A stretch of DNA of 64,000 bases from assembly GCA_029261035.1 (NCBI GenBank), contig JAJDCD010000012.1, positions 158,776-222,775 on the forward strand, given 5' to 3'. Below are positions 33,001 through 60,086 of this stretch, in pieces. This DNA is from Candidatus Omnitrophota bacterium. GTDB lineage: Bacteria; Omnitrophota; Omnitrophia; Omnitrophales; JACROU01. Numbering within the stretch: position 1 is the stretch's first letter; each line of letters starts with the position of its first letter. The notes under the pieces were generated by a model. That model was not told the DNA's origin and did no database searches. It saw only the letters and a list, made by a program, of their open reading frames with translations. The position numbers and the translations under genes were made by a program.

Positions 33001-36000
33001 GCACTATTCAAATTTTGCTGAGTAACATCTCCACTTTCATCTGTAATATTAATTTGAGTTAAATTAGAAGTATTATCATAGATATAAGATTGACTCGATC
33101 CATCTGGAAGCTCTACCAAAGTCACGTTACCAGCAGCATCAAATGTCTGTTTGGTTCCATCAGGCAATTCTATGTTTTGAACATCTCCAGTAGCAGATAC
33201 GTTTTGTATCGTCTCATTCCCATCGACATCGACAGATGTAATAGAGAGCAGACCCCCATTCCCATCATAGCTGTATCTTTGCTCCGTCCCGTCTACATTA
33301 ACAACTCTTGAAACATCTCCACTTTCATTAAAATGTTGCTCAGAACCATCAGGCAGTTCAACGCGCTTTATACTCCCATTAACATTTAAAAATTGTTTGG
33401 TTATCTCTTGATTCACGTCTCTAATTTCTACTTGATTTAAAGTTCCTGTAATAGCGTCATAAGAATAAATAGATTCACTTCCGTCTGGGTTTACAATGCG
33501 ACTCAGATTTCCATCCCCATTAAAAAACTGCTCTGTTCCATCAAAGGAAACCATTGAACCAATACTTCCGTCTGAATTTAAATTTTGTATCGTTACATCA
33601 TTATTTATATCCGTTATTGTGATTGAGCTTAAATCGCCATTAGCATCATAAGTGTAATCTTGGGAACTCCCATCTACAGATTCAACCCTAGAAACATTAC
33701 CTTCTGAATTTAAAAATTGTTTGGTTCCATCAGAAAGAAATATAGATGTAATATTTCCAGCAGCATCCAAATTTTGGATTGTTATTTGATTAAAGATATC
33801 GGTGTTTCTAATTTGACTCACATTATTATTCGTATCATAAAAATACTCTTGTTTCGTCCCATCTACATTTTCAATGAGGGCGATATTTCCTGAAGCGTCA
33901 AAGGTTTGTTTAGTTCCATCCCCAAGAACAATACTCTGAACTTGGCCTGTTGAAGAAATATTTTGAACTGTTTCACTTCCAGCCACATCCACAGAAGTAA
34001 TAGAAGTTAAAACACCTGTATCATTGTAATCATATCTTTGCTCGGAACCATCCTCATTAACTACCTTTGTAACATCCCCTTCTTTATTGAAGTGTTGGAC
34101 AACCCCATCTGGAAGATCTATATGTGTAAGATCACCATCCGTATCAAAATGTTGAGTTGTCTTCAGCCCTACAGCATCCGTAAACTCAACAGAGGTTAAT
34201 TCGCCTGAAACATCATAATTATTGACCTGAACACTAAAATCTGGGTTAACCTGATTTAATAAATATCCATCAGGATGAAATTGCTGAGTCGTTCCATCGG
34301 GTAACTCCAAAGCAGATAGAACCCCGTTATCATCAAAATTCTGCACCGTAACCAAACCATCTATATCTGTGACAGTAATATCTGTCAACAAACCTGTAGC
34401 GTTATAGCTATAATCTTGAACTGTTCCATCAACCAAAGTTCTCTTCTCAATTAAATTAGTAATAGAGTCCACTATATCCACTTGTCCATCAGGGTATGTG
34501 GTCGTTATAAGACCTGTATTTTCATCCAACACAGAAACCGGGGCTGGAAAATAGGTATCTCTTAATAAAGTGATACTACCCGTCAACTGATCAAATTCCG
34601 TTTGAGTTAGCGTTTGATTCGTAAGAGCATCGTTGACTGAAACTTCAAGAGCATCAATCAGATCTTCATTTTCCAAAGCATCCGCAACAGCTAATTGAGT
34701 CAAATTTTGTAATGTTTGATCATGGGTAACAAATGCTGGGCTTGCTTGTCCAGCATAAATCTGCTCTCTTTTTCTTTCTAACTCATTTTCCAGATCAACT
34801 TCTTTTAAAAAGTTAGACAAAGCTCGTCTTGAATTAATAGGATTGTAATCCTCAGAACCTCTTTCTAGCTTTACCGCTGCTTGTAGTCCTTGAATAAAAG
34901 CCCTTAAATCATCTGTCTCAGAAATAATTCCATCCTGATTAAATTCAAAAAGCTTAGGTCCTTCATTTGTATAAGCAATTACAAATTGACTCTCTTCACC
35001 TGCTACCTCAAAATCTCGAAGACTGGGTTCAACACTAGAAACACCACTAGGATGCGTGTGTGATTTAAAAGATGACTTTTGAATAAGTGAAGCTACGGAT
35101 TGAGAAGCGGTAATTTCATCATCTTGCCCACTAGAAAATAATACTATTTCTCCCTCAACAACAGTAATAGCAACTTCCATAGGCCAGTCAAGTAGACTTT
35201 GAAGACTATCAGCAGTAATTGCTCCAGGATCCAAAATAACAGCAGCGGCTACATCTTTATCAAAACCACCCATTTCCAAAGCGTCTTCAATACTGTAACG
35301 TTCTATTTCTCGAACATCTGCCCATAAATCTCGTTCAATACGATCTCTTTTTAGAAGCTCAGCTTCTCTTTCATATTCTTCAATAGTAACAACGTCCCCT
35401 TCGGGTTTTTCGATTAATAAATTCCCATCTTTGTCTTGAACCAACTTTGGAAGCGCTTGATCAGGATAACGGTAAGAATTCCTAAAATGCTGACGATAGA
35501 TATTCCAAACTTGAGCATGAGCTTCTGCTTTAATAGGATCGATTTTAGAACTTGGATTAACAGACCTGTCTTTGATTGATTTTAAATCCCCCAACAAATC
35601 CATCATTGAAATGGAAATACCAGCCTTCCCCTCTTCCCTCTGAACCTGAACCGTTCTACGTGCATTAGATTCAAGAAATTCCATATAGTAATTAAATTCC
35701 AAAGGCTTTTCTTCGCTAAAATTTTCCAAAGATTGATTAGAAACATCTTCACTTTTAACAGCTTCTTTTTCAATGAAATCTACAGCAGCTTTTGGAGCTT
35801 CTTTCTTTTCAACTTTGACGTAAGAAAAATAATCCTCTTCCACTTCTTTTCCTGTAAATGATTTTAGGGTTTCTTCTTTTGTTAAGAACTCCCCTAATTC
35901 TTTTTCTTTATCCTCTTCTTCTTTTGCAATTCTTGTTTCTTCATAAGCTTTTTCATCTTCAGCTTTTTTAGCAGCATCTTCGGCTGCAATTGTTTGAATT

Positions 36001-36230
36001 TCTTCTTCGGGTTGAGGCGCTACCATCTCTTGTAAGAAATCTTGTTGGTAACGGATATGTTCTAAATTAGCAGAGTTATTTTGAACAACTTTATTGATTG
36101 GAGTTAAAGAAAATGCGAATAGAATATCGTTCTGAGTAAATAGAAAGGTAACGAGAACCACCCAAGATATAATCTTGCGAGTGGAACGAAGAAAGGATTT
36201 CTTTTCCGATCGAGCCTTTTTTAATCTCAT
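1..36230 (-). CDS. Giant multi-repeat secreted/surface protein (YD/Rhs-repeat family). Start codon in window, C-terminus beyond the left edge; at least 12,076 codons in-window.
   Basis: ATG (plus 'cat') at 36228-36230 preceded by AGGAGG (36241-36246, 10-nt spacing) and by an in-frame upstream TAA. Hand translation reads cleanly everywhere sampled: N-terminus MRLKKARSEKKSFLRSTRKIISWVVLVTFLF (signal-like); LPDGSTQFFNKDGSVDT near 32560; DQTDGSTQIFVYDEAQEL at 28021-28080; NEDVQQVISPDGTIQDYEYDSENRASKITTRIGDLPDDIQ at 27601-27720; VTFKNLSEGWEAITTTSYERDEIGNITKTTETDKNGNQTIKDF near 23600; DQLKVAEGDAVAAAELAVKAAEFDLTNAKKDLKALEGTAGA at 9841-9963; YTHKAPAQCGSPDHMDHHNHGADLGNDG near 4000; EVVEGGATKTTYSANLGTIELGGITLDGGAVVEFNVVDGKTTMN at 2341-2470; VTTASILALGTLTGPLGFLAASLLSTGLDVVGLTGNYKT at 3-119. 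The ORF track lists no minus-strand true-frame fragment of 60 aa or more anywhere in 1-36230, consistent with one uninterrupted frame that lacks an in-window stop. Confidence 0.85.
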   Translation of the reverse strand, partial: MRLKKARSEKKSFLRSTRKIISWVVLVTFLFTQNDILFAFSLTPINKVVQNNSANLEHIRYQQDFLQEMVAPQPEEEIQTIAAEDAAKKAEDEKAYEETRIAKEEEDKEKELGEFLTKEETLKSFTGKEVEEDYFSYVKVEKKEAPKAAVDFIEKEAVKSEDVSNQSLENFSEEKPLEFNYYMEFLESNARRTVQVQREEGKAGISISMMDLLGDLKSIKDRSVNPSSKIDPIKAEAHAQVWNIYRQHFRNSYRYPDQALPKLVQDKDGNLLIEKPEGDVVTIEEYEREAELLKRDRIERDLWADVREIERYSIEDALEMGGFDKDVAAAVILDPGAITADSLQSLLDWPMEVAITVVEGEIVLFSSGQDDEITASQSVASLIQKSSFKSHTHPSGVSSVEPSLRDFEVAGEESQFVIAYTNEGPKLFEFNQDGIISETDDLRAFIQGLQAAVKLERGSEDYNPINSRRALSNFLKEVDLENELERKREQIYAGQASPAFVTHDQTLQNLTQLAVADALENEDLIDALEVSVNDALTNQTLTQTEFDQLTGSITLLRDTYFPAPVSVLDENTGLITTTYPDGQVDIVDSITNLIEKRTLVDGTVQDYSYNATGLLTDITVTDIDGLVTVQNFDDNGVLSALELPDGTTQQFHPDGYLLNQVNPDFSVQVNNYDVSGELTSVEFTDAVGLKTTQHFDTDGDLTHIDLPDGVVQHFNKEGDVTKVVNEDGSEQRYDYNDTGVLTSITSVDVAGSETVQNISSTGQVQSIVLGDGTKQTFDASGNIALIENVDGTKQEYFYDTNNNVSQIRNTDIFNQITIQNLDAAGNITSIFLSDGTKQFLNSEGNVSRVESVDGSSQDYTYDANGDLSSITITDINNDVTIQNLNSDGSIGSMVSFDGTEQFFNGDGNLSRIVNPDGSESIYSYDAITGTLNQVEIRDVNQEITKQFLNVNGSIKRVELPDGSEQHFNESGDVSRVVNVDGTEQRYSYDGNGGLLSITSVDVDGNETIQNVSATGDVQNIELPDGTKQTFDAAGNVTLVELPDGSSQSYIYDNTSNLTQINITDESGDVTQQNLNSAGNVVSITTPDGTQQIFDEDGNITRVESVDGSKQEYFYDADSNLNQIKITDSFDSVTTQNLDADGNVTSIVLSDGIEQFFNFDGSVSRVVSPDGSVQSYSYLADGSLRTLAITDSDGSTTTQLFDGDGDLSQIFLPDGSTQFFNKDGSVDTVFGADNTEQRYSYDEQGVLSSITSIDVDGNETVQNVSATGDVQAITLADGTRQTFDEQGNVLLVELPDGTRQQYIYDDNSQLKQILLTGLEGGVTIQNLSPEGDVLSIMTPDGTKQFLNENGDVSRVEQPDGSVQEFTYDVGGALTRITITDIYNQSTVQNLDAAGNVSSVVLPDGSSQFFNALGNVSRVIAADGSEQNYVYGAGGNVSSISITDIDGDVTTQNFNALGDISRVELPDGGAQFFDLEGNVTKVTASDGSEQRYNYDDSGVLTSITIIDIDGSETIQNISASGEVQTIELPDGTKQTFDANGNVSLVELLDGSSQAYLYDANSNLTQIKITDVDGGVTEQNLDLDGNVTSVKTPEGTQQFFNDNGDVSRVELLDGSKQEYLYDASGNLSQIKITAANNDITLQNLNLSGDVTSVILPDGSGQFFDVNGNVKRVLNSDGSEQNYQYSSDGILNSVAITDVDGGVVTQYLDIDGDVTRIELGDGSTQHFNKDGNISRVVGADGGEQRYSYDDNGVLSSISIVDVDGNETIQNVSATGEVQTITLPDGTRQTFDGSGNVTLVELPDGTDQAYLYDSNSNLAQIRITDANGDITEQNLDVDGNVTSVVTSDGTQQFFNADGDVTRVELPDGSEQEYFYDNAKNLTQIKITDPNNAVTTQNLNVTGGVTSVALPDGTQQFFNALGDVSRVVNADGSEQSFQYAPGGSLSSVAITDVDGLVTTQHLDSDGDLTHIELPDGSSQYMNKDGTLSQVVAADGATQSYAYSDQGVLTEITTVDADGNETVQSMSGTGQVQIIELPDGTIQVFDENGNVSLVELPDGTEQHFNTDGNISKVVNPDGSRQEYTYGYDQDGVASANKATIRVFSAPTAIVSYPEIELQADGTIKIINPNGTETLIDPTLNDQVVGAPVGDVELPDGYVAPASNDEAVNRLLASFRANNGEADNYVDFLKGQFADINATFSDAQGNPHTITYRQVGEHFDLMVTDGNQAAFNQVPSEVMIQAHDEYIKRYRNFMGIAVPEDSAEEVALRASLEEGAGPAIVGVSPDDINQTFFQNNLGTTEFDNYEAFLTNPAYRHIGGVVVDGAEVSYQDVADQINVIRSDLQQGNPVNISEGMKQAVSQYFNRFKAYFSSYYGDDYGDASGILEQVQTLDLGADGELGGEGVDADQTLFVQTADGTKQEYDYDDEGNLSQIKITSPDNQITYQNVDVDGNATSVELADGTKQFFNANGNVSRVEQTDGTIQDYIYNDLGVLTFVNITTPEGETTKQEMNSNGDVVSIELPDGTKQYFDFEGKVTGVDNLDGSSQEYIYDENAILAAIKLIDADGNETLQRMSEAGEVQTVELPDGTKQTFNEDGAISRVENPDTSKQEYIYQESVLTQIRITDENNILTIQNMNENGEVSSIELADGTKQFFNENSDISRVEQNDGTIQDFIYSDEEKLIQIQVTDPSGNITIQNMGENGEISSVELDDGTKQFFNANGDVSQVDQTDGSTQIFVYDEAQELTQIRITNSQGELTIQNMGANGEVSSVELADGTIQSFNSNGDVSQVVQPDGTTQDFVYNQADQLSQINVTDPEGDVTAQKFDSEGKISEVVTPDGTRQLFNENEDVQQVISPDGTIQDYEYDSENRASKITTRIGDLPDDIQQITSYQYEGEGDDAKTIVTSENPQTGVVSTQTLDSNDQLIRNEVLADGELSVFNENEELVEFTNKNGEKSLYEDGYIKQIIDKNGDVIQTFDLVRDPETNAIIDFTQVDYTPQNTNSQIIDGMSRDVFHNGTISYYKKDGALDFFTNSHAVIQSVQEDEDGNTLIFLNDGRKINYKKNPVTDEDVIDKITNLRGEVDVYLYNDQGELEAISKQTNSTDGPIRVIEKTVYLKDAEGNVVTDGEGNAKVDYVVSRTGSVNRSVYDPESPDKVLKTVREKSLEDNTKISESFFNEEGQVDTSVSYDEIGQEIISRSEYLYNEDGEMTGIQNFDVSDVENAADAVQKGTGAFQNTLYYKKLDNFNVPVIDYTQDGVGNKTTYEYDAAGYILKTVTTNALRNIVSEAIYEKGLFRDERIKAVINYEVDLDSPGASETKPGSMSVYEYNEDGDNTGLKQYRVNNEVDALDNLVDDVLVSDIQYLPGTTLIDYTVQYDDAGIATGRTDFFYDQGVLKKIVRRNSGDLDGAILFESFYEGDEPGKERTLYNIEYRVDENDPTLSVPDNRTDYAYDVTGALQEISRRSGPNETDPVLQKTKFKGAAGSEIASDVLNYRINEAGEAELSLWQHMEHDDKDRIKKIQYRNSEDPTAPIIQEARLEGDRGEELTTEMITFGIDPQTNQSSFSTHQKFVYDSNGKLLKTEIRDKDDLNEHPIAINLMEGEQGQERIYRALNYFKKEDGAYALASRQDYIYGDGGAISETQIRLQDSDSAAIKSASTYEGEPGRERVVETTEYDISQPGKVLSRSTFEYDENEALKQVNQFKEDTDVLLSTVKYEGTERGRERMSQVVTYEEDGDDADTDPDVSSTSDYTYAANGALTTVTQTEDGRSSVSTYEGDPGSERVSEISFYNGDGSLDKKSTYFYDENTGILDRVEDDDGTINYYRRDQFGQDLIDRTIDPTGKVTPYIYDTSSGESVLQVVGTEETTRTRYKQINVDGNQVSVIDTTEEPILFAEDGTPTAYRTNTFLYNSAGENVAILSSDGSLTINETVKDDDSKLLETIVTRTEANAEGYVLEQDADGFVIAVNPGTADIQEIRTLDAFGDVKSIVDRFGGETTFAYERDNGRITKSIATDKNGNITEKTLDIFGDPIKIVVQSAQGWTQETNISYDRDPVTSQILKSTKVDPNGNTTIEKFDINNNITERVFRSVEGWEAKSTFEYEFDENRNMIERRETDKNGNIKTEKFNGRQELVELTIQNIDQGWEDTTTYEYEHDELGNVSKTTETDKNGDKTIKEFDDAGDVVKVTFKNLSEGWEAITTTSYERDEIGNITKTTETDKNGNQTIKDFNVAGDITSSTFKNNEEGWEATTEFVYERDGVGNLVKITETDKNGNETIKQNNIHGDLIRLTFKNKDQGWEASTEFVYGKDDKGNVNLVTETDKNGNITQKAQSKYGDIQSLTVQNVEQGWSATTLFEYQKDDKGNIEKTIETDKNNNVTEKEMSKYGDVLSQTFKNLEEGWESTSRMLYEKDGKGNNKKITRFDRNNEKTEEHYNTSGDLITQVDNFGGVSVLDYTKDAKGNVLVTSTIDKNGNKTHRKTNVHGDTTALIDQYGGVTNITNEKDGKGNLSKQISTDKNGNETSQSFNIHGDVTGFSNKFGGLTSMIHEKDGKGNISKTIETDPNGLVTRKEFNLLRDLISLTNPLGGKTDFQYLRDGVGNVKFITEKDGRGLLVSKEMDVITGQIKKKIDEFGGITEYSYVLDSVGNTTHIIEVDPKSFIKTQVFDPKENDLIRIETYNPYSKTNVVANMSYNKDSLGNILSRITDDDQGNNTVSTMDLTSGDVTKNVVKNSSGVIISSTTSETIRNAEGTMEKVIETDDLTGNKTTRIYASNGDMTETISTPADGSYEKRIKMEYTREDGVLTQLIETDSNDRRTIKKFNKEGDMIEKRDPFGGVSTYSYVKRSNNQTEQITEVNKNGTVLLTQFNEDNDVTLSATISALTGEIQANRMSYDKRADGSVMKSYQSTISPADIQLALGGAIEQNDFNQSKAALQNLQILNDSAVNALERMRKSGLSTAEQIQEAENLVLSLQTQLADNESLMQAVRVSSFASLEQLNEVVQSLNDRAVAIASDLTQQIQDQDGLRASISLERIQSIQEGLDLAILGLESLGGTQEDLGDAATIKNAINGIVASLEDGVNNLSREVTSDVSLNILTEITGQINVLRTSSIEALTEGDLYIANQNIDSINALIQSAVSLKDDVIFDVNATEEQIQQAKSVVANLNDVSAALNVNLSDLSNRKTFKAVSEAGSSTGFGLKINSEELNVAFMANLMTESPEEFAAYQSFLDRNSTLLQTVKDTDGADVSLNYGEIRGQLSDISSGAKTSFSVEEAKAHANVINFYQKYFSADTDENLATLAIDQGVITVTRSNGKVMVFDSNQNDRILSETTIAGDEKTYNALGKLEREVKVSGEEVNYLYDDLGKLDMVTERNLDGDVTIQRFNVEGFLVVVDNPDGSKEFYNQSKNLEKIEFVDGTRKNYSYSDKGLLQKIKLTDAVGNETVQNYDPRGLISTVELPDGSVQFFGENQQIQSVNKANGNRVDYQYDENSVLSKIVVTEAGGTVTERVVGDDGNSFVVQLEDGTEQTYDLSGRIQLVVNGDGTQQEYSYSILGLLQTIEITDGEGKVTTQTLDQNRKVVSIEEPNGDMKYFNSEGRLYRIEHTDGSSKELGYSNEVLSSIKLIDEDGTEVIQAISPEGKIISETSSDGIVSYFNDDNLVSSVVYPDGSNHTYLYDENNNLITIEARDSNDALTVHTMAENGNIQQSVLPDGAVHDYNELGQLAKVTQVDGTVIDYSYWGATLREISLTAVNGEKTTQSFGYDGTLNRIDFPDGRIHYYYNENITRIDNVDGSSRQFKYDTDNNLIEVEITDNNYQTTTQAIDPDTNTLTVSLPNGSTEVYDASGKLLSINLSDGSSQNYIYDVSGNISSIQKTDKDGNVSQQSFDVQDTSTTVNLEDGSQQTYDVSGNVTKIEFLDGSMEEYSYDVENKLSEVRLTSVDNQVTIQQINSKGEVTAIQNPDGSRQAFGDDGSSQSYDVNDRLVSEVAIIDGKITLKDYVYDSNGTLTDTIVNDSNLGFSTEGITDVDSLKRMGELLLDPQMRQIVLDASAAGISGSLIAAALSLESENSSFVFQDTINSLISKLDAQEFSKDTLDQLVSNQVELKVILLFDTDSELQQLMDVLKSNDVSIDTSRVGNLNNIVSNAYETLDDSGLTKVKDALMNLLIMVDYVDPQNLEAIPEEDRYRLGVSEDYYSGGLTLNTYTYYNNRKTVFNSFKSFMNKFSGSEGEVLLSAGTLAGFGVTPKRIQGEYGYYGNVVLPGMDSKDQMSGFAQALEEASEADRTLMVEIVNNQLKSVEHITVMSSADWKEVLEKALVIKNNNLSVPINTTLESIRKTYDLVMDPATKPLVDSLAAEGIAGSVIGATSELEGRFPEFTAESTLNLIQDLIQQGNLSVTTINRMAAFGLDITTLMLFDSEAEFEKIFDGILRYGVTTNTIVVDMMNDMINGFIEYKGAASWESEKGRVKTFLMETLLDYDYLDITDTTTWGALTSEQRVKFGIIGDGTETSPYMYNTNDYYKNRQSVFYRMNDVISSASPNQGRALDILSSLYEQGVGGDYMLGGIAQGTLLYNGVYSINILDGFKQAMDQLGGNSAQGVAAINSGIAGFINFTNGFEEAEVYKGLVLNAVNIINSGISVNGARSIEDLERLNVMTQDPETLALMANLSSSNVSPAVLAMAKESEENFPGMLAKDVLTDLQTRIQSGAYDASLINHMTQMGLSLTSILMFDTEEEINQLADVLGRSGYYTAVEGTRASSLSALIDGFISHVGGANWKNEMSDAKDMLKTLMLSNGYVVPTQYVDSNSALQYDFDGVNESTYRNNRQTVFNNVINGFNSFQGTDKGIALQAMAALYKAGVNSTTLLGEYNQYGYVVTRGIQNKDQLTAYQELIEEAADPTTLIQVMENNVTPIVGTYPRIYSVEGWKETINKIVDLVNLNTSLDAITSTSILDTMHSLLTNPDTQNLVQAVTDAGMDSSVLILAGDTQGRHPEMVLADVLNELISRVNQGAMTADSITQLVSNGVSLQTILTFDLTEDLTKLFDALSNDGSDIDRYRKDKMNALIDSYLDHSGAANWQNIPGNVKNALRSVLLDNGYIPVDQLTAETNYYGSFSHYSYGTQGEEGYIENYFTHRKNIANRFFLLTSSTLRYDQGEGLELMAQLNDLGIDLDKVIGGLDQYGRTLGDGLKSTVQMQAYIQALNNAGDNLEAVITVIENNISTIVGRYPSQRTVEDWLSVVNDAAGLVAQNFSLDAITSTDQLSAMNALLSDPNLKTVTENALNAGISMAMVAGIGGTEGIDKAAVLTDLMTKLQNGDLTSDILDQANTAGLSAQVMMVFGSDLELNKIMDVIKNTNGSFDRYRKDKFNTIVSGFMEGNAGEGLDAAIAGFKNLLENSLFEGFIDPSLLTANTNYYGSVYNYTYGQSGDPDYTDDYYGDRKEKADLFLNYFSNNFRNEEGDAVNVLSQFVAEGVDIQFLFGTLDRYGRSSGDDVGAVEQMASYLKAIQAAGENKDKVVTALKDNMFNIVGRYPDPSTEEEWDAVVSKVVDLAVQDVDLSSISSIDALNSMHALISDPVMKEKVDNLAALGISASFVSAAQSMAQMHSSLDLESTLNLISDKVQNNIISAESINQLVSAGVSLLAVMIFDQTLELEQLYDVLLDESGALEDSRVVDLNEMLNSYLEHVGGELSEATDLFKAAFNSQLLSLNYIPKGQLTAKTNYYGSVYQYDYEDPTDSSNNIYNYYEQRGNTFKQIAGILDSLRYDKGEGVAIAIELLSAGVSKDQIFGTPGYYGNSGGIQNITQARGLLKAVSEAGNQKSQIVSIINNNLSSIIGPYPNMNTPEEWAEVIQTAANLQFLNIGSPTQWGKHIADSTSAVNLSVLDVEGGQSAESILADFQAIGAPSVISPLGLGGPSGVLDVSDFSSAPVVQLFDIPEIPESSLLPPEISEPDGILDDQPNVRAPPEDSPEAKGDFLFKGLGDEVAQQALSAGFVGLANVAASTIIREFGSDGELVSVEDDQGKAEVEQVFDSYGNLIKQIDHLEDNTITKEFDPITNNLLVFEDDNNRIEYQNITDAVGNVIGKIARTVKSDRPELVGTMNAQEFDVEGKLTKNIDGRGIVTSWTYGIDDEGKAFKRSEITEDPFFPEDRTTLGTVTIFNSDTTIKEVNRPDGSVMKYTYEREDDDPKGKILKTIVDGTAVQVNPVTQQEETLESHIEYDEKGDMTLSIANGVTHEFEYFREEGLLVKMIDNSSGGPNGASRTVNHYDDAGDLVKSEVYDGAALQVLQNQEAVPSEAPTEGTQIGSIIALPKVYEYKYEKDDRGNITLKTAYFDGNEVYYDGAGNQLGFQPSVGSVTTARLKNGWTLQYIKDTNSPANAPPPQEGDEITDFRVAGTANLAQDELFYQNGETMTPNGKIVWTNPSGIKGEIWYLEDQFDEDGQPVISARKVLKQIAIMSDGTFEDIIDERGDGSLLDDIDPRNANFRDPSSVILDGELPYQTFSLTSAQHQADVAITSAEVAEEAAAEARASAVKANSELSALSQPTQDMLKRVQELEAFAVKKEAEAVELRNDAAALQATANQKDTESNYDPTMSQIHKLFAAYQVGAAGPTAEIYKFIPPHLKNFTGLTDQMAENARYLSQDPPPKLVMPVQAKNAFVKAITNRIREHATMEKLYKETSKVVTAHENFRKDEGRLFVAINSFQDKDVFAENLATNLKSAEKYYDDVRNYLEGNNRDDLARAQQAMTAAKAALSGRQGAALREVIRAKEIALKNARDQLKVAEGDAVAAAELAVKAAEFDLTNAKKDLKALEGTAGAEPGQAAEFAEDISDKSWNDISFEEVDAGMMVLRKLDIRGLAAKKFLAEHDYNVAKQIVEQRQALYDQASDRDDSSPLLRDLEHAKDMLKVKERILVQRKRTVELFENLKKHTTDLKELYQPHNIENFYEDAIALDDPDFLDPALEGTDGHFVKDYRANKAKVETAINSFETTLTGHHNTHRAAYIALYDYALGQLNAYASKERTSYRWNSEVEAYQPHERTRYKPGGKSVSQWVSEFEASMYDGETDTEKRNNIKAANYTQMVSMAQSAMNFIIGESRPTPPSGRNIKWVETGQSISARAAKEAIADKVKADSKTADLDLAQNVLNLQTTTQAQLDTASDEMIDAYMEKVEALIDNTTDRLNRVKDEMMGTGTGEADNFKVSRDSRWADLKAAASDMVDSKEYDGISNRFDDIMDVWNDAKADADDSLARYKSHFENYQLFSDKEYHTARDPVILKMEQAIIDYEKDKKSAADNYNAARIQLDLDLDPKRQVYFEAKTEIEKNFSVQRATQEKALEGALLTLEDTLESKLSQYYSALQGVVQTFVSAAGSQSPISQADFDARMQSDDRRSFLDHYVEILSEQAGSLGVDLLLGDDRSSDSNATFSQYETTLQDFLTAANTSQTTHQPKQAIEDYEIQRAQAEADSKETIATLDKDMMDQLVAVETTWEKELVAYQEKVAEAVHLREIALADAEQKWNVDSAQFADVMNMTSIDYRNRTEENLRAWLKDQRGDYFHSGGMIQISPPTLVLYAGVAGSGFVAPTYPNQDRWDGESRSFTGGLGITTGMNPMVLDDYLQNAAEMDMRSNDFMEQITKNVVKTQEFFDRELFNDSDRYAQFLSLERDSLESFLQEVDSPFYTQSVSQYGSGSITDTGSTLRGTQLFGSTFSGFPFDTPTSSGTTTTGADEREQMRELYNDYVEERLGKKVRNEDGTYSYTPSKTKDYFDAFDAAISFEHDGDKFFLFDPKQEPPLSVNETVERWMAPYTPNKRSALDFSKFFRGLHERGDQVGMLNEKKLLAADELSAAFWENGFGENEGGPVAQYKRRYALADMSEIRGLLSQEERDVLDELGADDTFNESRWVNDAVTARYDAIRESDQAFNRALQDYDYQIEASMKDYYEVMGGDPDVQKEIQDFREEFPNRELSLELQNKLKGTARVALEQEEQKTRRGWDNAQQEYTDGIFEAKTAYDEALRVALNQFLEDQDEATFLASINSEKSIYEAAVSQFQQDYASTMNGITTAWKTAQRAFADATDAAIAKVKQEQEDAKTALEDMFKEEKEKREGIEETFVAQLDAIRNAKQEIDKKAQDEFREAYTTFVDETEAAYQEAFQKSRDAFEQIHEALVGSSGMDGALGKISDAADTYKDWIKQQKSTIEPQMKTLAESILAKNRTSDDPIKYAGYYYGRSLYSMSGGYTPELDMTSMGGVFKSAEEKYDEYKENRYQDGPTPPLKIYEKERIMTGEPPRYSQYYGDRRNEDGTYTETTKDTTLSFPTTKDILDTDGRGGGSFSRMMNLVNKIEEGIGGIDFQTDEGFMGADRGIKVERDKFNHEYFDFSEFQEGVVDTVINDNHYNEIKAKLFDAWGENEAEAELQRIMNDPNSTQEQIDDAVRQRDDAVGQTDVLIIKKKYVDDAMDKYVNEEIDKLIDADRNALIKASRKHLREVVPNITDVDLNELSALDINIRFVARVEAKKSWYEMSAYERADLIAEVVEEDLKQEGNEILNRSYEKDGFTYEQDKYERNKVLEYIKKWPSPIKVDEFKKDVKTYQMAHLWEDMFKQDFKLVQDETVIYRFGDWDPLQILPSRVRFHSDVQTEEILTGEKLNNIPFQKSKASDLDTAKLATLMKKIYEDTTIYTAYRSKWKVGQRSTYDRDTQTRTEAYEVERINGARLNNGVVDRFKDMKETLETTLKKMFERELDNDFVSRRVIKEVKSYTHKAPAQCGSPDHMDHHNHGADLGNDGSALTRLIEAEQRRLKGSMDYEGGAFQNTSSGGNYDVMFEEVNNYITKMVEASKKYEEATAGNKPPSDDFFDRAKEAHNILADDGTRTSFKSWWDMQNGRASKIVKTNGTTVNSLYDMDSGNKLAEETSSARRVVEVHNIGGKQVKEIKTVRETQLREAVGKEKDGQRELVLRRTSTTQGGGLGQTSEFQYDAEGKKSGTITVTKDGGEVHLDSAGKVIYTQQLVQKVEQRRSKVDGVLRNITTDAGTTFWRGRMVEGLVVDEVNGWRNEISNGYKINTTLREVKNEAAGLVYSAGLKMVNDLITNGEVVNEKKGIRQIYNTIDGVTEQTMKLLDGVDKAEIRDGVFLERGENGKTPVFRNGVLIEGKLVDKNTGIVTTATKRVSNETGELTTVRTTTYTKYFKIEGADGTVTQLLENTTLVGGKLISGKMIKTNEAIGFVQVTEAGANGEVTDTLTITKDNAQIGNMIYKDGTIVTNGQLTTGESYNSKTGLRTSKEVVEGGATKTTYSANLGTIELGGITLDGGAVVEFNVVDGKTTMNHVDGGIWQGEGSTRMYVMKYEGSDGARHTEQTFLGDGIELGGVPLKNEDGTPKLDADGNPILSPKFKMAVGSVMRDGRLISGAMTSDKVEISAVDSKTLRHRALSNDYKLGGSLTLEQGAVFEIKTVIGEDGNETSETELISGAMVQTDNAGNQMRTVVGEIQMGSVFGITLTVPGSKTKTQTVLSDNFITGYEGKDGVKLRATQDENGNTVYKTLDDEGNETGTYTGDVFTTTLTKGSTITTSTLGGIVIQNNQFVGSTINNRTHLKTSVDAAGTNTFIPLRAGARLETKDSEGKQVVYTFSSVDTRMVGSIVTQGEVLIGSDVVNTAGVRTFVATTRLVAEKVQVELGDQSDPSKVKSTVQGSVIYNKDSDGEWQRQGVNLFLDGSDKPTFVPAKSGDTIFFVGQGEGLGSGQSYRQLFSDYANPESGESNQTGSRFRDRAFEDIKDSVGIRSRGSDGSVNTTFYKPDDDGKMQVVGRVGFAVDGSVSLTTNSVDDLGNKIVIRQNFTAVKYNEDGEVDPNGTDSAIEKTSVTVMNEFDQQIGGWSSDKFGQRTIIQATEEVTRDHKGNVVPPLQAFKHNGEVVRYPAKTTDSEGNQQDHPKAGQIVHTQADALDVIRSNPQNANATGDDLTETSYRERRAVLGYTEVENNWFNGSVAPALGAIFVSSEDKKDYFQQQQMAQIPFNTKGQLPPAPGSAPVESTPISGWTTWNVQHQEGKNIIQSRGGFLNAAYEVTQAVTTASILALGTLTGPLGFLAASLLSTGLDVVGLTGNYKT
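12560..18050 (-). repeat. Six divergent tandem ~310-aa modules inside the giant CDS, each carrying a (L)TA(E/K/N)TNYYG motif.
   Basis: Motif copies translated at about 13125 (GQLTAKTNYYG), 14050 (LLTANTNYYG) and 14965 (DQLTAETNYYG), with diverged copies near 15880, 16770 and 17660. The ~0.9-0.95-kb spacing is visible on the plus strand. Confidence 0.6.
18250..20400 (-). repeat. Second YD-repeat block inside the giant CDS.
   Basis: Sampled translation DKDGNVSQQSFDVQDTSTTVNLEDGS near 18600, and the recurring DG...Q..YD..G.L pattern in flow-read translation. Boundaries are approximate. Confidence 0.45.
22580..24260 (-). repeat. About 10 tandem ~56-aa repeats (FKN..EGWEA.TT..YE.D..GN....TETDKNGN.T.K.F...GD) inside the giant CDS.
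   Basis: Recurrent 'tttccatctttttc / ttccatt(c/t)ttatc' strings on the plus strand, which read EKDGKGN / DKNGN on the minus strand. One unit (23530-23706) was translated explicitly. Confidence 0.65.
24400..27500 (-). repeat. Irregular Rhs-like repeat region (YEG-x-PG-x-ER...Y-x-YD motifs) inside the giant CDS.
   Basis: Flow-read translation shows motifs such as YEGDEPGKERTLYNIEYRVDENDP and YEGEPGRERVVETTEYD. Only partially verified codon by codon. Confidence 0.4.
27560..34430 (-). repeat. YD-repeat block 1 inside the giant CDS: about 36 tandem copies of a ~63-aa (189-nt) unit made of three ~21-aa YD-type repeats (Y-x-Y-D-x-x-G-x-L... / ...PDGT-x-Q-x-F...GN-V).
   Basis: The recurring nucleotide motif 'ccatc(a/c)gg...ttc' is visible on the plus strand across this span. 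Sampled translations: DGSVQSYSYLADGSL; QIFVYDEAQELTQIR; PDGTIQDYEYD. The copies are divergent at the DNA level, not identical. Confidence 0.7.
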
Positions 36231-36301
36231 GTTCAAAGGACCTCCTAGTTGCCTAACTAGTTCCCAGAACAAGAGAAAAAGGAATATTTGTTTACACTAT
36301 A

Positions 36302-36330
36302 ACTATACCTAGTGTTTCCTATTGTGTCAA
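36302..36330 (-). promoter_or_regulatory. Near-consensus sigma70 promoter for the giant gene: -35 TTGACA (36325-36330), 17-nt spacer, -10 TATAGT (36302-36307).
   Basis: Minus-strand sequence ttgacaCAATAGGAAACACTAGGtatagttatagtgt lies 30 nt downstream of the rndB stop and about 70 nt upstream of the giant-gene ATG. AGGAGG sits at 36241-36246. Confidence 0.55.
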
Positions 36331-36359
36331 AACACCCAATTTAAGGGGGCATTTATGTA

Positions 36360-39300
36360 CTAATTTACGGGTATTTCTGTCTTCTTCTTTAGTGATAATT
36401 TAGGTATTTTTATGTTTCTCAATTTAGAGAACCCTCTTTTAAGATCATCTAACCCATAATAAAGACATGGGATAATGAATAAGGTAAGAATAGTAGAACT
36501 AATAAGCCCTCCCATAACGGTTATTGCTAAAGGCGCCCATAATTCAGCTGATTGCCCGAAGCTAATAGCCATAGGAGCAAATCCAAGCAACGTAGAGGTC
36601 GTTGTCATCATAATCGGTCTTAAGCGGTCTTGACAAGCCCTCATGAGCAAACTCTCTACATGAGTGTAATCCTCCTTCAACATATTAATTCTATCTATTA
36701 AAATAATAGAACTATTAACCACAGTACCTGCAAGCATAATCATCCCTATAAAAACAGATTGGCTCAAAGGCTTTCCGGTCAAAGTCAAACCTGCCCAAAC
36801 ACCAATGGCAGCTAAAGGAACTGCAACCATAATTAACAACGGCTGAACAAAAGACTGAAACAAACATGCCAGTAACATATATATAAGTACAACTGTGATA
36901 ATCATAGCTTGGCTCAACTGACCTCTTCCTTTAATGAGCTCTGGGTATTTTCCTCCAAATCGAAAATAATAATCTTTTGGAAACTCAACATCTTTTACAG
37001 CCTCCTTAACATCTTTTGCTACGGCTTCAATAGCTCTGGATGTATCTGCTTTTACAAAGACATATCGATGTTTATCTTTTCGATCAATTGTAGAGGGGCC
37101 CGTAGATGGAAAAAAACTAGCCACTTGAGAAATAGGAATTTGATCTCCTCCTTTATTCCCAACCAATATTCTTCTAAGATCCTCTAGCTTTTCACGATAA
37201 ATAGGTTGTAACCGAGTTATTGTTTCTACTTCTTCACCCTTTTCCTGCTCTCTGAATTTTGTTGGCCTCATACCTCTAACCTGCGCATGAATGGAGTCCG
37301 CTACTTGCTTGACGGTTAAATTGTAATAAGAAGCACGGCCACGATCTACAATCAAACTGTACTCAGGCCTTTTTCTCAAATCTGTCATAACAACATTGGA
37401 AAGTCCCGGGACCTTCCCCATAATACCTGTGAATTCATGGGCTAGTTTTTCAAGTTTGTCATTTTCATGACCGTAAATATCGATAACAAGTTTCGTCGAC
37501 TCATCACCAGAAACTCCCTCATCCACAATAACAGAATAATCTTCGTGAACAGTTTTCGCTTCTTCCCCTCCTTTTTCTCTAATATATTTTATAATTTCTT
37601 CCTTAGAAGTTTTTCGTTTTCGTTTCGGCAGTAATTTAACATAAAGCTTTAAGTCATCTTTTCTAACAACCGTATTCATTGTCTCTACTTCAGGAAATTC
37701 GCTCAACAAATCTTCAATTATTTTAGCCACACGATCATTAGCCCCTAATTTAGCCCCTGCAATAGGAAACACAATAACAGAGAATTCATTCTCTTCGTAA
37801 GAACTAGGCATATCCATATCTTTTTTACCAATTTCACCTGCCGCATACACAAAGGAAAGAAAAACAATTAAGAGAACAATGTACTTGTTTTTGAATGTTT
37901 TAGACAAAAGGAAACGATAGCCTGAAAAAAATCGACTCCGCTCTAATTTCTTAAGATCTTCAGCCCCACCTGAACGCCCTAATTTAATACGGCTCATAAG
38001 CATAGGAATAAGCATAACAGCAACGAATAGAGAACAAATAAGAGATGCGCTAATGGTAAAGGCTAAGCCTTGATACATGAGTTGAATTTCTTTATCAATG
38101 AATATAATAGGGAGAAAAACAATGATTGTTGTAGCTGCCGATGCTGCCAACGGAAGCCAAACCTCTTCAGCTCCAACAATGACCGCTTCAAAATGGTGCA
38201 TCCCTTCTTGTTTTTTCTTATAAATATTTTCTATTACAACAATAGAACTATCAACCAACATACCCATAGCTAAAGCCAAACCCGTTAATGTCATCACATT
38301 AATACTAACGCCCAAAGCAGCCATAAATATAAACGTCCCAATTACAGCGGATGGAATAGATAACATAACAATAAAAGCCAAACTAACCTTTCTAAGAAAA
38401 GCAAATATCGTTAATACGGTCAATATCACACCTAACAATAAAGAATTTCGAACTTCTCCAATCGCTTTTTTTATAGACTCAGCCCGATCTGTTATTACGG
38501 AGATTCGGATATCTTCATCTAGAAATTTACGAATTAACTCGACTTCACTTTGAACGGATCTAGAAACCTTAATTGTATTAGAGGTACTTGTCTTTTTAAT
38601 TTGGAGTGAACAATTGTCTTGGTTATTGAGTCTGGCGTAATCCTGCGGCTCCGAATAAGCATCTTTAACTGTGCCAACTTCTTTTAATGGGACAATAGAG
38701 CCTTCTGAAGTTGTCCCCACACCAATTTCACCAATATCTTCTACTTCTGTAAACCCACCAATAGTTCTAATGGCAATATTTAAGGAACCTTGCTGAAAAT
38801 CTCCTGCCAGCAAGTTAACATTAGCACTCCCTACTGTCTCCATTATTTTTTCAACAGTAATATTTTGAGCAAACATGCGGTCGCGATCTAACTCAATTAA
38901 AATCTTTCTTTCTCGACCACCGTAGACATCAACACTCGCGACCCCCTGAACGCGAGCTACTGCAGGTTTAATATTTTTTTCAACATATTCGCGAAGTTCT
39001 TCTGGCGTCTTTACTCCTGAAACAATTGAAAATATTAAAATAGGACTGTCTGAATCATTAAAGTTAGCTATGATCGGTTTTTCAATTTCTTCAGGTAATT
39101 TATTTTTTACTTTGGCAAATTTTTCTCTTACTTCTAGAGCAGCAAAATCCATATTCGTTCCAGGTTCAAACTGCAACGTAACTTTAGATTCCCCTTCACG
39201 CGAATTAGAAAATAAGTTTTTAAGGCGTGCAACAGTAGCTACCGATTCTTCAACGGGCTTGGTGATCAAAGACTCTACTTCAACGGGAGCTAAACCACCT

Positions 39301-39455
39301 CTAGCTCTTGTTGTAACTGAAATAATTCCTCGAGACATGTTTTGATAGAGTTCAACTTGAAGACTGATTAAGGAAATAACACCTAGGAGGATAATCCCAA
39401 CAAAGAATATGATAGTAAAAACAGGTCGTCTAACAGAAAAATTTGGAAGTCCCAT
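36360..39455 (-). CDS. RND family efflux permease (HAE1/AcrB-MdtC-like), 1031 aa.
   Basis: ORF track. RND N-terminus MGLPNFSVRRPVFTIIFFVGIILLG, 12-TM architecture, size typical of AcrB/MdtB/MdtC. Confidence 0.9.
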   Translation of the reverse strand: MGLPNFSVRRPVFTIIFFVGIILLGVISLISLQVELYQNMSRGIISVTTRARGGLAPVEVESLITKPVEESVATVARLKNLFSNSREGESKVTLQFEPGTNMDFAALEVREKFAKVKNKLPEEIEKPIIANFNDSDSPILIFSIVSGVKTPEELREYVEKNIKPAVARVQGVASVDVYGGRERKILIELDRDRMFAQNITVEKIMETVGSANVNLLAGDFQQGSLNIAIRTIGGFTEVEDIGEIGVGTTSEGSIVPLKEVGTVKDAYSEPQDYARLNNQDNCSLQIKKTSTSNTIKVSRSVQSEVELIRKFLDEDIRISVITDRAESIKKAIGEVRNSLLLGVILTVLTIFAFLRKVSLAFIVMLSIPSAVIGTFIFMAALGVSINVMTLTGLALAMGMLVDSSIVVIENIYKKKQEGMHHFEAVIVGAEEVWLPLAASAATTIIVFLPIIFIDKEIQLMYQGLAFTISASLICSLFVAVMLIPMLMSRIKLGRSGGAEDLKKLERSRFFSGYRFLLSKTFKNKYIVLLIVFLSFVYAAGEIGKKDMDMPSSYEENEFSVIVFPIAGAKLGANDRVAKIIEDLLSEFPEVETMNTVVRKDDLKLYVKLLPKRKRKTSKEEIIKYIREKGGEEAKTVHEDYSVIVDEGVSGDESTKLVIDIYGHENDKLEKLAHEFTGIMGKVPGLSNVVMTDLRKRPEYSLIVDRGRASYYNLTVKQVADSIHAQVRGMRPTKFREQEKGEEVETITRLQPIYREKLEDLRRILVGNKGGDQIPISQVASFFPSTGPSTIDRKDKHRYVFVKADTSRAIEAVAKDVKEAVKDVEFPKDYYFRFGGKYPELIKGRGQLSQAMIITVVLIYMLLACLFQSFVQPLLIMVAVPLAAIGVWAGLTLTGKPLSQSVFIGMIMLAGTVVNSSIILIDRINMLKEDYTHVESLLMRACQDRLRPIMMTTTSTLLGFAPMAISFGQSAELWAPLAITVMGGLISSTILTLFIIPCLYYGLDDLKRGFSKLRNIKIPKLSLKKKTEIPVN

Positions 39456-39475
39456 AACGTTGTCCTCGAATCCAT

Positions 39476-39630
39476 TAGCGGACAGCGTTTAGCGTGGAGC
39501 GTATAGGGTCTTTTGTCAATAGGCTCATCTGTCCAAAACATGTCCACTTAATCTATAATTCACTTTATTTATACTACGCGTCACAAAAGAACCCAGTTTT
39601 ACTATCCGCTCTACGCTATGCGCTACACGC
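39476..39630. repeat. Imperfect ~22-bp GC-rich inverted repeats (gcgtttagcgtggagcgtatag / ctctacgctatgcgctacacgctag) flanking a ~75-bp AT-rich spacer in the 167-bp gap between the two RND genes.
   Basis: Reverse complement of the right arm, gcgtgtagcgcatagcgtagag, matches left arm gcgtttagcgtggagcgtatag at about 80%. Islands of this GC content are unusual here. Confidence 0.45.
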
Positions 39631-42898: not shown

Positions 42899-43024
42899 AG
42901 TTCACCTCAAGGTTCTTTATAAGTATACACCATATTTGCATTTATGACATTTCTTAGTTGCTAAACGGTGTTCCGAGGAGGGATTTAGATATTTATCCTT
43001 GCTACTATAGTAAATATCTCTTAA

Positions 43025-46326: not shown

Positions 46327-46417
46327 TAGAGGTTCCTCTATAAAATAAGGTGCTGATCCATTTACAAAAACAGTGTTATATTATCGGCTATAATAGCTTT
46401 TAACTAAAGCAGCTTGT

Positions 46418-48121: not shown

Positions 48122-48202
48122 TAATTCTGTCCTTTGTCATTAAAACGTGAAGCGTTATTCCTGAAGTGCATTTCACTCTTAAACCAAAAACCAAAAACTG
48201 GT

Positions 48203-57036: not shown

Positions 57037-57069
57037 GAGTCTTTCTCTCTTTCTTAAGTATTTATAAAC

Positions 57070-57144
57070 TGGAGCGAGCGAAGGGATTTGAACCCTCGAC
57101 ATCAACCTTGGCAAGGTTGCGCTCTACCACTGAGCTACGCTCGC
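57070..57144 (-). tRNA. tRNA-Gly (anticodon GCC), with CCA encoded.
   Basis: Minus-strand sequence gcgagcgtagctcagtggtagagcgcaaccttgccaaggttgatgtcgagggttcaaatcccttcgctcgctcca folds as a cloverleaf with a 7-bp acceptor stem, anticodon loop uuGCCaa and T-loop ttcaaat. Confidence 0.9.
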
Positions 57145-59484: not shown

Positions 59485-59569
59485 TGGTGGCGCCGGAGAG
59501 ACTTGAACTCTCACACCTTGCGGTACATGATCCTAAGTCATGCGCGTCTGCCAATTCCGCCACAGCGCC
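59485..59569 (-). tRNA. tRNA-Leu (anticodon UAG), class II with a long variable arm, CCA encoded.
   Basis: Minus-strand sequence ggcgctgtggcggaattggcagacgcgcatgacttaggatcatgtaccgcaaggtgtgagagttcaagtctctccggcgccacca: 7-bp acceptor stem (one G-U), anticodon stem catga/tcatg with loop cuUAGga, 13-nt variable arm. Confidence 0.85.
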
Positions 59570-60009: not shown

Positions 60010-60086
60010 TGGTGCCCGCACTAGGACTTGAACCTAGGACCCACTGATTAAGAGTCAGTTGCTCTAGCCAACTGAGCTATGCGGGC
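60010..60086 (-). tRNA. tRNA-Lys (anticodon CUU), CCA encoded.
   Basis: Minus-strand sequence gcccgcatagctcagttggctagagcaactgactcttaatcagtgggtcctaggttcaagtcctagtgcgggcacca: acceptor stem gcccgca/tgcgggc, anticodon loop cuCUUaa, T-loop ttcaagt. Confidence 0.85.

Follow-up and report, generated by a model that had tools for sequence, protein, structure and literature searches.

A conserved putative promoter and a leader predicted to fold over the ribosome-binding site lie between a tandem RND efflux operon and a giant gene in Omnitrophota

The window, which is the whole 64-kb stretch of DNA that was analysed, carries an efflux operon (OMF, adaptor, RND1, and RND2) followed on the same strand by a giant gene (Table 1). 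ACR_tran covers the full length of both RND permeases (E = 2e-218 and 3e-221), and the full-length permeases, the HlyD-type adaptor, and the OEP factor together place the system among the RND (HAE1-like) tripartite efflux systems. RND1 and RND2 are paralogous and about 30% identical to each other. An OMF, an adaptor, and two tandem RND permease genes are also found in MdtABC and MuxABC-OpmB; the resemblance is confined to the tandem arrangement, and the OMF here has a long N-terminal extension. The MdtB/MdtC (MuxB/MuxC) NCBIfam equivalogs gave 346-384 bits against cut-offs of 1584-1774. All scores with NCBIfam equivalog and RND-permease subfamily models were far below the curated cut-offs, and the generic adaptor subfamily model TIGR01730 was the only NCBIfam model to pass its cut-off. 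No described Mdt/Mux system is known to have a giant gene after it.

Table 1. Features of the efflux operon, the gap, and the giant gene in the window
Feature	Coordinates	Strand	Remarks
Upstream efflux operon	36360-46326	-	OMF, adaptor, RND1, RND2
OMF	44263-46326	-	687 aa; Pfam OEP, E = 7e-28
Adaptor	43025-44263	-	HlyD_D23, E = 4e-24
RND1	39623-42898	-	ACR_tran permease
RND2	36360-39455	-	ACR_tran permease
RND2 stop codon TAG	36360-36362	-	end of the distal RND permease gene
Weak hairpin AAAUGCCC / GGGUGUUU and T-tract running into the -35 hexamer	36330-36354	-	below terminator criteria
-35 hexamer TTGACA	36325-36330	-	6/6 consensus positions
-10 hexamer TATAGT	36302-36307	-	5/6 consensus positions; 17-nt spacer after the -35 hexamer
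Second TATAGT	36296-36301	-	directly after the -10 hexamer
Predicted transcription start	36293-36296	-	inferred, ~7 nt after the -10 hexamer
Long imperfect leader hairpin	36215-36282	-	predicted fold
Leader core TCTGGGAACTAGTTAGGCAACTAGGAGGTCCT	36237-36268	-	conserved with L005; contains the palindrome
Palindrome CTAGTT-AGGC-AACTAG	36245-36260	-	overlaps the first two SD bases
Shine-Dalgarno AGGAGGT	36240-36246	-	9 nt before the ATG
ATG start of the giant gene	36228-36230	-	N-terminus aligns with L005
Giant ORF	3-36230	-	at least 12,076 codons; runs off the window
N-terminal anchor of the giant	36105-36173	-	
JAMM/MPN-like domain of the giant	34743-35318	-	residues 305-496
YD/RHS repeats of the giant	about 24531-34553 and 18231-21233	-	Pfam RHS_repeat

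The reading frame of the giant gene has no stop codon between 36296 and position 3, at the edge of the window. RHS_repeat (PF05593) matched its product in three segments (E = 1.5e-28, 1.1e-34, and 6.8e-93), spanning residues ~560-3900 and 5000-6000, and no Pfam family matched the distal half (the distal 6,000 residues). Such strong matches are shared with the RHS/YD-repeat proteins (Rhs toxins, Tc toxin C components, and teneurins), although the giant, whose C-terminus lies outside the window, is far longer than the classical Rhs proteins. Residues 305-496 conform to the MPN fold. The JAMM motif (Glu ... His-x-His ... Ser-x-x-Asp) was recognized in 30 sequences, with E67, H106-T-H108, and D121 invariant and S118 nearly so, and with a spacing from HxH to Ser longer than the canonical 7 residues. 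Prok-JAB matched 7 of the 30 relatives (best E 4e-4), the window sequence itself having no Pfam match in this domain, and a PDB profile search with the domain found nothing. The relatives of the giant N-terminus were found by an exhaustive HMMER search; word-indexed homology searches with residues 1-560 and 200-520 found nothing, nor did a metagenome scan with the giant N-terminus.

The first-pass annotation of this DNA had claimed, for the giant gene, a near-consensus promoter of its own and a strong Shine-Dalgarno (SD) sequence directly after the RND operon. We confirmed these motifs, and they are conserved in relatives (see below). TTGACA and TATAGT were located at 36302-36330 with the 17-nt spacer, as had been described, and the -35 hexamer lies 29 nt from the RND2 stop codon on the minus strand. 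A motif scan of both strands of the whole window gave this site as the sole match of at least 11/12 positions, and with its 11/12 positions it also ranked first in a separate scan of 30000-48500. When the 129-nt gap was shuffled by mononucleotides, the probability of the gap promoter was P = 0.002. In addition, intergenic DNA showed an enrichment of about 8-fold for TTGACA on the transcribed strand: it makes up 4.1% of the sequence and contains 4 of the 12 occurrences.

Orthologous OMF-adaptor-RND1-RND2 operons, with RND2 proteins 52-83% identical, were compared at eight distinct loci in Omnitrophota, and TTGAC(A/T)-17-TAnnnT occurred in the equivalent gap of all eight; L008 has the -35 variant TTGAAT in the same gap. 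In the alignment of the three closest loci (the window, L005, and L015), the -35 block TTTTGACA was invariant, as were the TA and T positions of the -10 hexamer. The per-locus P values outside the window were modest (0.03-0.38). Judging from these alignments, the putative promoter in the gap is evolutionarily conserved, with the same 17-nt spacing in the relatives.

TTGACA-17-TATAGT resembles sigma-70 promoters, including the internal promoters of gene clusters, at 11/12 positions, and, like a suboperonic promoter, the site lies after the fourth of five same-strand genes without an intervening terminator. It differs in that the -10 hexamers of the relatives are looser (TAGACT, TAGTCT, and TATACT), and in that the host is an uncultured Omnitrophota bacterium, whose sigma factors may differ in specificity; activity is deduced from conservation only. 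As promoters go, the predicted element is ordinary, but it is real. We regard as rather probable the explanation, taken as a whole, in which the gap (36231-36362) holds the giant gene's own housekeeping-type (sigma-70-like) promoter, the promoter activity being presumed. In the proposed layout, the efflux operon is followed by a fifth, giant gene with a separate, strong promoter.

The criterion for an intrinsic terminator was a GC-rich stem, 5 bp or longer, with a T-run behind it. The scan found no terminator-like site between the RND2 stop codon and the -35 hexamer in the window gap, in agreement with the earlier remark that no convincing terminator lies there; the best local hairpin in this interval had a stability of -7.9 kcal/mol (z -1.3). 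The mini-hairpin after RND2 was considered as a terminator and rejected, as it fails the terminator criteria and its stability is not unusual. Most relatives, like the window, have no terminator after RND2, and L015 has a strong terminator after RND2 and ahead of the promoter, with an 11-bp stem that contains 9 GC pairs and leads into a T-run. Because no terminator follows RND2, read-through from the efflux operon into the giant gene, which had been raised as a possibility, is plausible in the window; the terminator of L015 indicates that the efflux and giant units can be insulated from each other, and the giant gene of L015 would therefore be untranscribed without the promoter that lies downstream of this terminator.

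These data also bear on the opposite reading, in which the promoter is a chance match in an AT-rich spacer and the giant gene is the fifth gene of the efflux operon, transcribed by read-through. This reading accords with the missing terminator in the window and most relatives, and with a genome of 37% GC in which weak promoter-like matches were as common as expected from shuffled sequence (46 found, 52.9 expected). However, it does not account for why 128 kb of scanned strand contain just one site of at least 11/12, for the 17-nt architecture that recurs in each of the eight orthologous gaps, for the invariant -35 block, or for a strong terminator placed upstream of the promoter in L015. We consider it very unlikely indeed.

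Downstream of the predicted promoter, AGGAGG was found at 36241-36246, next to the small overlapping palindrome noted at first pass; the next T extends it to the 7-nt AGGAGGT. The predicted 65-nt leader and the first five codons would fold into a long imperfect hairpin, in which a pyrimidine-rich 5' arm (36262-36282) pairs with a 3' arm (36215-36240) containing part of the SD sequence, the AUG, and the first 5 codons. The pairing in the lower stem consists partly of U-runs with the Lys/Asn-rich first codons, and AT-rich genomes can yield such pairing without selection. The leader of the window folded at -23.3 kcal/mol (z -2.5) and that of L005 at -26.8 kcal/mol (z -4.5; 0 of 200 shuffles folded as well), and the L015 leader was no more stable than its own shuffles (z 0.03). 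In all three loci, two of the three AUG bases were paired with a probability of at least 0.9. Across the three leader sequences, 87% of the cells were paired, and pairs changed on both sides numbered 5 against a shuffle mean of 1.9, with 2 of 500 shuffles reaching 5 in this comparison of three sequences only. Slid controls were all worse than the leader alignment, and the RNAalifold covariation term, again from three sequences, was slightly unfavourable (+0.56). The group-B loci have long, unrelated leaders.

According to these models, the folded leader appears to hide the ribosome-binding site of the giant gene. Since the pyrimidine-rich 5' arm is predicted to pair part of the SD sequence and the AUG, translation initiation would probably be held back, or conditional, even under strong transcription. 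The predicted arrangement is like that of the 5'-UTR hairpins that sequester the SD sequence and the start codon through a pyrimidine-rich upstream strand; a difference is that the apical sequence is more conserved here than pairing would demand, a hint of a trans-acting factor. The leader core was 94% identical between the window and L005, whereas the flanking coding DNA was 59-69% identical. The leader also shares with RNA thermometers (ROSE and fourU) a predicted stability that depends strongly on temperature (-35.5 kcal/mol at 15 C, -18.8 kcal/mol at 45 C), but its stem is much longer and more stable than is typical, and no Rfam family was matched at the gathering threshold by the leader in the window or in six loci. 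The only Rfam match, to the 'OppA thermometer', was discarded (wrong strand; 14.5 bits against a gathering score of 290 bits). Further copies of the leader core in viral contigs were also discarded; the three matches, all inside phage helicase genes, were due to chance.

The suggestion that the palindrome modulates translation can be kept in part. It forms the tip of the larger predicted hairpin that pairs the SD sequence and the AUG, but its symmetry is kept in L005 only; L015 retains TAGCTAGGCAA without the symmetry. As a perfect 6+6 palindrome, unique within the window, it might instead be a DNA operator and not an RNA structure, with a dimeric repressor bound to CTAGTT-N4-AACTAG, at about +36 to +51, blocking elongation. 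The conservation of the core between the window and L005 beyond base-pairing needs would fit such an operator, as would the XRE-type regulators that accompany the operon in more distant loci. Nevertheless, the centre of the L005 palindrome is 5 nt, not 4, which shifts the half-sites; the symmetry is lost in L015; no regulator gene adjoins the operon in the window, L005, or L015; and a DNA operator leaves the compensatory changes in the outer helix unexplained. We consider an operator quite unlikely. The putative control region is compact, joining within about 130 nt a conserved promoter and a leader whose fold appears to cover the ribosome-binding site, ahead of a message of at least 36 kb.

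The informative loci of the relatives came from a metagenome scan with an RND2 alignment. A large or giant same-strand gene follows RND2 in eight of the nine informative loci. An ORF with more than 3,200 open codons follows RND2 in seven of the eight orthologous loci, and the eighth has genes of 1,172 and 1,705 residues; the ORF of L009 is cut at 1,551 codons by the contig end. The giant ORF starts 125-350 nt after RND2 in L005, L006/7, L008/9, L010/13, L011, and L015. RND2 identities of 52-86% indicate several independent lineages, and the genes upstream of the block vary (rseP-proS in some loci, an XRE/cupin regulator in others). As read from these loci, the gene order OMF-adaptor-RND1-RND2-promoter-giant or large anchored protein is kept in several Omnitrophota lineages. 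The first-pass annotation had named unlinked loci in relatives as a finding that would speak against its view; the linkage held in these eight loci and was broken in L012, where housekeeping genes follow RND2 and the giant gene is missing.

The occupants of the last slot belong to two families with unrelated N-termini: one has the JAMM-like domain and YD repeats, and the second has an unrelated N-terminal module. Consequently, a single giant conserved at all loci was rejected. L002 and L015 have different occupants although their RND2 proteins are 86% identical. Linkage to RND genes as a property of the JAMM-type giant family was likewise rejected; four members with context adjoin unrelated genes. 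In L014, an IS110-like transposase starts right after RND2, and the contig, which ends at this gene, is uninformative for the slot; in L010, an IS4/5 fragment lies upstream. That the protein in the last slot is replaceable suggests maintenance of the position beside the pump, not of one particular giant protein.

We give an even chance to the reading in which the gene order was inherited, or the slot is permissive for insertions, and pump and giant have no functional connection; the site after RND2 would tolerate or attract genes for large secreted proteins, and the giant gene would be a self-contained unit. The two unrelated giant families in the slot, the differing occupants of L002 and L015, the lack of a giant gene in L012, the IS110-like transposase of L014, the IS4/5 fragment of L010, the JAMM-type giants elsewhere that are not RND-linked, and the giant gene's own promoter, insulated by a terminator in L015, all agree with this reading. 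On the other hand, the block persists down to 52% RND2 identity and in two upstream contexts, and replacement of one giant by another in place is also expected from selection for co-location.

Beyond the observed synteny, the pump and the giant protein may be functionally linked. A tentative and somewhat unlikely reading is that the tandem-RND pump and the separately promoted giant anchored protein form a functional cassette in an Omnitrophota clade, with the occluded leader timing the 36-kb-plus message. The pump, or its extended TolC-like channel, might for instance help to export the giant, display it on the surface, or process it. In another version, the pump would guard the cell against whatever the giant protein sets free while a host or prey is attacked. 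Such a cassette, if true, would be a pairing distinct from the known pairings of type I secretion systems (T1SS) with adhesins and of T2SS-like systems with giants. Type I secretion loci with giant adhesins (LapA-LapEBC and RTX adhesins) also have an OMF and an adaptor beside a giant repetitive surface protein, but they contain an ABC transporter, whereas an ABC gene is absent from the block here and the inner-membrane components are a pair of RND permeases. Furthermore, the giant has an N-terminal anchor or signal and no demonstrable C-terminal T1SS signal, its C-terminus being outside the window.

Giant genes were discovered in Omnitrophota only recently and are poorly understood. A functional neighbourhood would mean that giant proteins are handled with a new partner system; a non-functional one would mark a recombination slot through which close relatives exchange giant genes. 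The RND-giant neighbourhood is not mentioned in West-Roberts et al. 2023 (doi 10.1101/2023.11.21.568195) or in a 2026 preprint (doi 10.64898/2026.06.07.730766), and the words efflux, TolC, AcrB, and promoter are absent from both. These studies focus on proteins with a minimum length of 30,000 or 80,000 aa, and describe N-terminal peptidases of the C39 and S8 types, not JAMM; as neighbours of the giants they report T2SS/T4P-like loci, glycoside hydrolases, PilZ, and sugar importers (doi 10.1101/2023.11.21.568195; doi 10.64898/2026.06.07.730766). The locus in the window is like the described neighbourhoods in its phylum, in the position of a very large membrane-anchored protein beside envelope-spanning machinery, and in the peptidase-type domain near the N-terminus of the giant.

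Every gene of the 64-kb window lies on the minus strand, and, in the order of transcription, dxr, rseP, and proS are followed by the genes for an outer-membrane factor (OMF), a membrane-fusion adaptor, and two RND permeases (RND1 and RND2), and then by the giant ORF. Omnitrophota is a phylum known for giant genes; here, the ORF runs without a stop codon from the ATG at 36230 to the window edge (at least 12,076 codons). The GC content of the window is 37%, and the closest genomic relative of RND2 (78% identity) is found in a Candidatus Omnitrophota MAG. Between RND2 and the giant ATG is a gap of 129 nt. The first-pass annotation had placed at this junction the stop of the distal RND gene, TTGACA and TATAGT with a 17-nt spacer, AGGAGG, and a small palindrome, and these coordinates are right when read on the minus strand.

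Coordinates of features in the window and in loci found by RND2 homology
Locus	Feature	Position	Strand	Remark
Window	OMF	44263-46326	minus	687 aa
Window	Adaptor	43025-44263	minus
Window	RND1	39623-42898	minus
Window	RND2	36360-39455	minus	stop TAG 36362-36360
Window	-35 TTGACA	36330-36325	minus
Window	-10 TATAGT	36307-36302	minus	17-nt spacer after -35
Window	Palindrome CTAGTT-AGGC-AACTAG	36260-36245	minus
Window	SD AGGAGG	36246-36241	minus	AGGAGGT (7 nt) with next T
Window	tRNA-Gly(GCC)	57070-57144	minus
Window	tRNA-Leu(TAG)	59485-59569	minus
Window	tRNA-Lys(CTT)	60010-60086	minus
L005	Promoter			TTGACA, TAGACT
L015	Promoter			TTGACA, TAGTCT
L002	Promoter			TTGACA, TAGTTT
L006, L010, L011	Promoter			TTGACT, TATACT
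L008	Promoter			TTGAAT, TAAACT
L006	Group-B gene	from 13335
L008	Group-B gene	from 12502
L010	Group-B gene	from 12429
L011	Group-B gene	from 7680
L002	Group-B genes	from 4739; from 8353
L006	XRE-type regulator	2029-2601
L008	XRE-type regulator	248-823
L012	XRE-type regulator	1316-1933		cupin domain detected
L014	XRE-type regulators	696-1331; 1504-2118		cupin in one of two

The gap promoter was the best-scoring match in the 18.5 kb scanned and the sole site matching at 11 or more of 12 positions on either strand of the entire window (P = 0.002 against shuffled gaps). Weak promoter-like matches showed no excess (46 found, 52.9 expected from shuffled sequence); thus, only the quality and placement of the gap promoter are informative. 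On the transcribed strand, TTGACA was enriched about 8-fold in intergenic regions, which make up 4.1% of the sequence and hold 4 of its 12 occurrences; this suggests that TTGACA truly serves as a -35 element in this organism.

From RND2 scans, one of genomes and one of metagenomes, we kept the loci with the same OMF-adaptor-RND1-RND2 block and an RND2 52-83% identical to that of the window. After near-duplicates were removed, eight distinct loci, including the window, had a readable gap (L002, L005, L006, L008, L010, L011, and L015), and all eight contained the same promoter architecture, the spacer always being 17 nt. When the three closest loci (window, L005, and L015) were aligned, TTTTGACA was invariant amid drifting surroundings, as were the T-A...T positions within the -10 element. 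Shuffles at each locus outside the window gave modest P values (0.03-0.38), so the argument rests on recurrence at the same position and on no single locus. Conservation across orthologous gaps supports the earlier proposal that the giant gene has its own near-consensus promoter, which, judged from its sequence, appears to be a standard sigma-70-type element and, as such, adds one more example to a known kind.

The earlier remark that no convincing terminator separates RND2 from this promoter agrees with our scan of the window gap, which found no terminator-like site between the RND2 stop and the -35 element; the best hairpin there was -7.9 kcal/mol (z = -1.3). The window and most other loci, which have no terminator, could also allow read-through from the efflux operon. 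For L015, a strong intrinsic terminator is predicted between RND2 and the promoter (a stem of 11 bp, 9 of them GC, and a T-run), and the giant gene there would depend on its own promoter. The 159-nt giant-gene leader of L011 contains, between the promoter and the ATG (about 7602-7639), a hairpin of 12 bp that is followed by a T-run and resembles a terminator; it may be an attenuator, and this leader had no Rfam match.

Transcription of the giant gene in the window is predicted to start near 36295, leaving a leader of 65 nt; together with the first codons, it folds into a single hairpin, long and imperfect (-23.3 kcal/mol, z = -2.5). The palindrome noticed in the first pass is present as given, but forms no more than the tip of this longer predicted hairpin. 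The 5' arm of the hairpin (36282-36262) is rich in pyrimidines and holds four of the six SD bases, along with two of the three in the AUG, in base pairs. The L005 leader has the same, more stable fold (-26.8 kcal/mol, z = -4.5, 0 of 200 shuffles as good), and its lower-stem sequence differs from that of the window. Three consecutive pairs just 5' of the AUG are, in window/L005/L015, U-A/C-G/C-G, G-C/U-A/G-C, and U-A/G-U/U-A, and two of the three AUG bases are paired with a probability of at least 0.9 in each. In the alignment of these three sequences only, 87% of cells were paired, both-side pair changes numbered five against a shuffle mean of 1.9 (five reached in 2 of 500 shuffles), and slid controls were all worse. 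The RNAalifold covariation term was slightly unfavourable, the L015 fold was no more stable than its shuffles (z = 0.03), and the pairing consists partly of U-runs against the A-rich first codons. On these predicted folds, occlusion of translation by the hairpin is plausible, with the balance about even. No Rfam family matched the leader. Its core, TCTGGGAACTAGTTAGGCAACTAGGAGGTCCT, occurs once in the window; over this core, the window and L005 share 94% identity, as against 59-69% for the flanking coding DNA; because this conservation exceeds what pairing alone requires, a trans-acting factor may also recognise the core.

A same-strand ORF starts 125-350 nt after RND2 in L005, L006/L007, L008/L009, L010/L013, L011, and L015, and no stop interrupts it in the flank, over more than 3,200 codons (in L009, over 1,551 codons up to the contig end). 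In L002, this position is taken by two large genes (1,172 and 1,705 aa), and in L012 by housekeeping genes including infB. The linkage pointed out in the first-pass annotation thus recurs in most relatives and fails in L012. By their RND2 identities, these loci represent several independent lineages. The block is preceded by rseP-proS in three loci (window, L005, and L015) and, in four others (L006, L008, L012, and L014), by an XRE/cupin regulator (XRE-type HTH, about 200 aa, just upstream of the OMF gene); since the preceding genes differ, the block is what persists. The L014 contig ends right after RND2 at the N-terminus of an IS110-like transposase (MITIGVDFSK, about 13240-13280), and in L010 the operon has an IS4/5 fragment upstream; therefore, mobile elements flank some copies of the block.

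The slot after RND2 holds more than one gene family. Group A (window, L005, and L015) shares an N-terminal domain, and group B (L006-L011 and both L002 genes) has a different one of about 500-900 residues, with the conserved HIQDAH motif ([IV]HIQDAH-x-N-x-E-AQKNI) and no Pfam match. RND2 is 86% identical between L002 and L015, yet their occupants belong to groups B and A, respectively; thus, the occupant has been exchanged between close relatives. The group-A domain is found near the N-terminus in about 110 protein clusters elsewhere, many of 1,000-7,000 aa, and RND genes adjoin none of the four other family members whose context was examined. The pattern fits selection for some giant anchored protein beside the pump, and also fits a recombination slot; a true functional link between the two we regard as rather unlikely.

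Both groups, and most of the proteins inspected from the wider JAMM-giant family, share a hydrophobic anchor (residues 20-42 in the window; 36105-36173, minus strand) with the pattern K-[FI]-I-[SA]-x2-[VL][VLI][LI]-T-F-x2-[ST]-[QN], which may be a dedicated sorting signal. YD/RHS repeats occupy residues of about 560-3900 and 5000-6000 of the window protein, and the distal 6,000 or so residues (about 6000-12076; window 3-18230, minus strand) had no Pfam or other family match. The 12,076 residues include a single Cys. TM-like segments were seen at residues 6028-6046 and 12043-12061.

With two RND genes in tandem, the efflux operon is similar to MdtABC/MuxABC, but its genes score far below every equivalog cut-off. 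Reported neighbours of Omnitrophota giant genes are T2SS/T4P-like loci, glycoside hydrolases, PilZ, and sugar importers, and the reported N-terminal peptidases are C39 and S8 (doi 10.1101/2023.11.21.568195; doi 10.64898/2026.06.07.730766). The words efflux, TolC, AcrB, and promoter are absent from both texts, and none of the papers searched brings Omnitrophota, RND, and giant together; hence, within that literature, an RND-giant neighbourhood and a JAMM-type N-terminus seem not to have been described before. A promoter with a structured leader is ordinary in kind; the moderate interest comes from the conserved neighbourhood and the plausibly occluded leader of a gene of more than 36 kb.

The OMF is much longer than is typical of its family (about 450 aa), and is 577-795 aa in relatives; it has an N-terminal extension, about 170-270 residues long, that is poorly conserved. 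The 448-aa ORF at 55768-57114 overlaps tRNA-Gly, and its true start is therefore further downstream. The RND1 stop and the gap before RND2 are enclosed by a 157-nt inverted-repeat element (39476-39632). Its arms, of 31 nt and 77% complementary, each consist of tandem units of 14 nt with a period of 7 nt (AGCGT/ACGCT), and the element includes a perfect TTGACA at 39519. Because the RND1-RND2 gap is much shorter in L005 and L015, the element may be a MITE- or REP-like insertion. The adaptor-RND1 gap contains ATGTCA-17-TATACT followed by TAT (42922-42950, minus strand). This site is similar to the promoters of the group-B giants and may serve the RND genes as an internal promoter.
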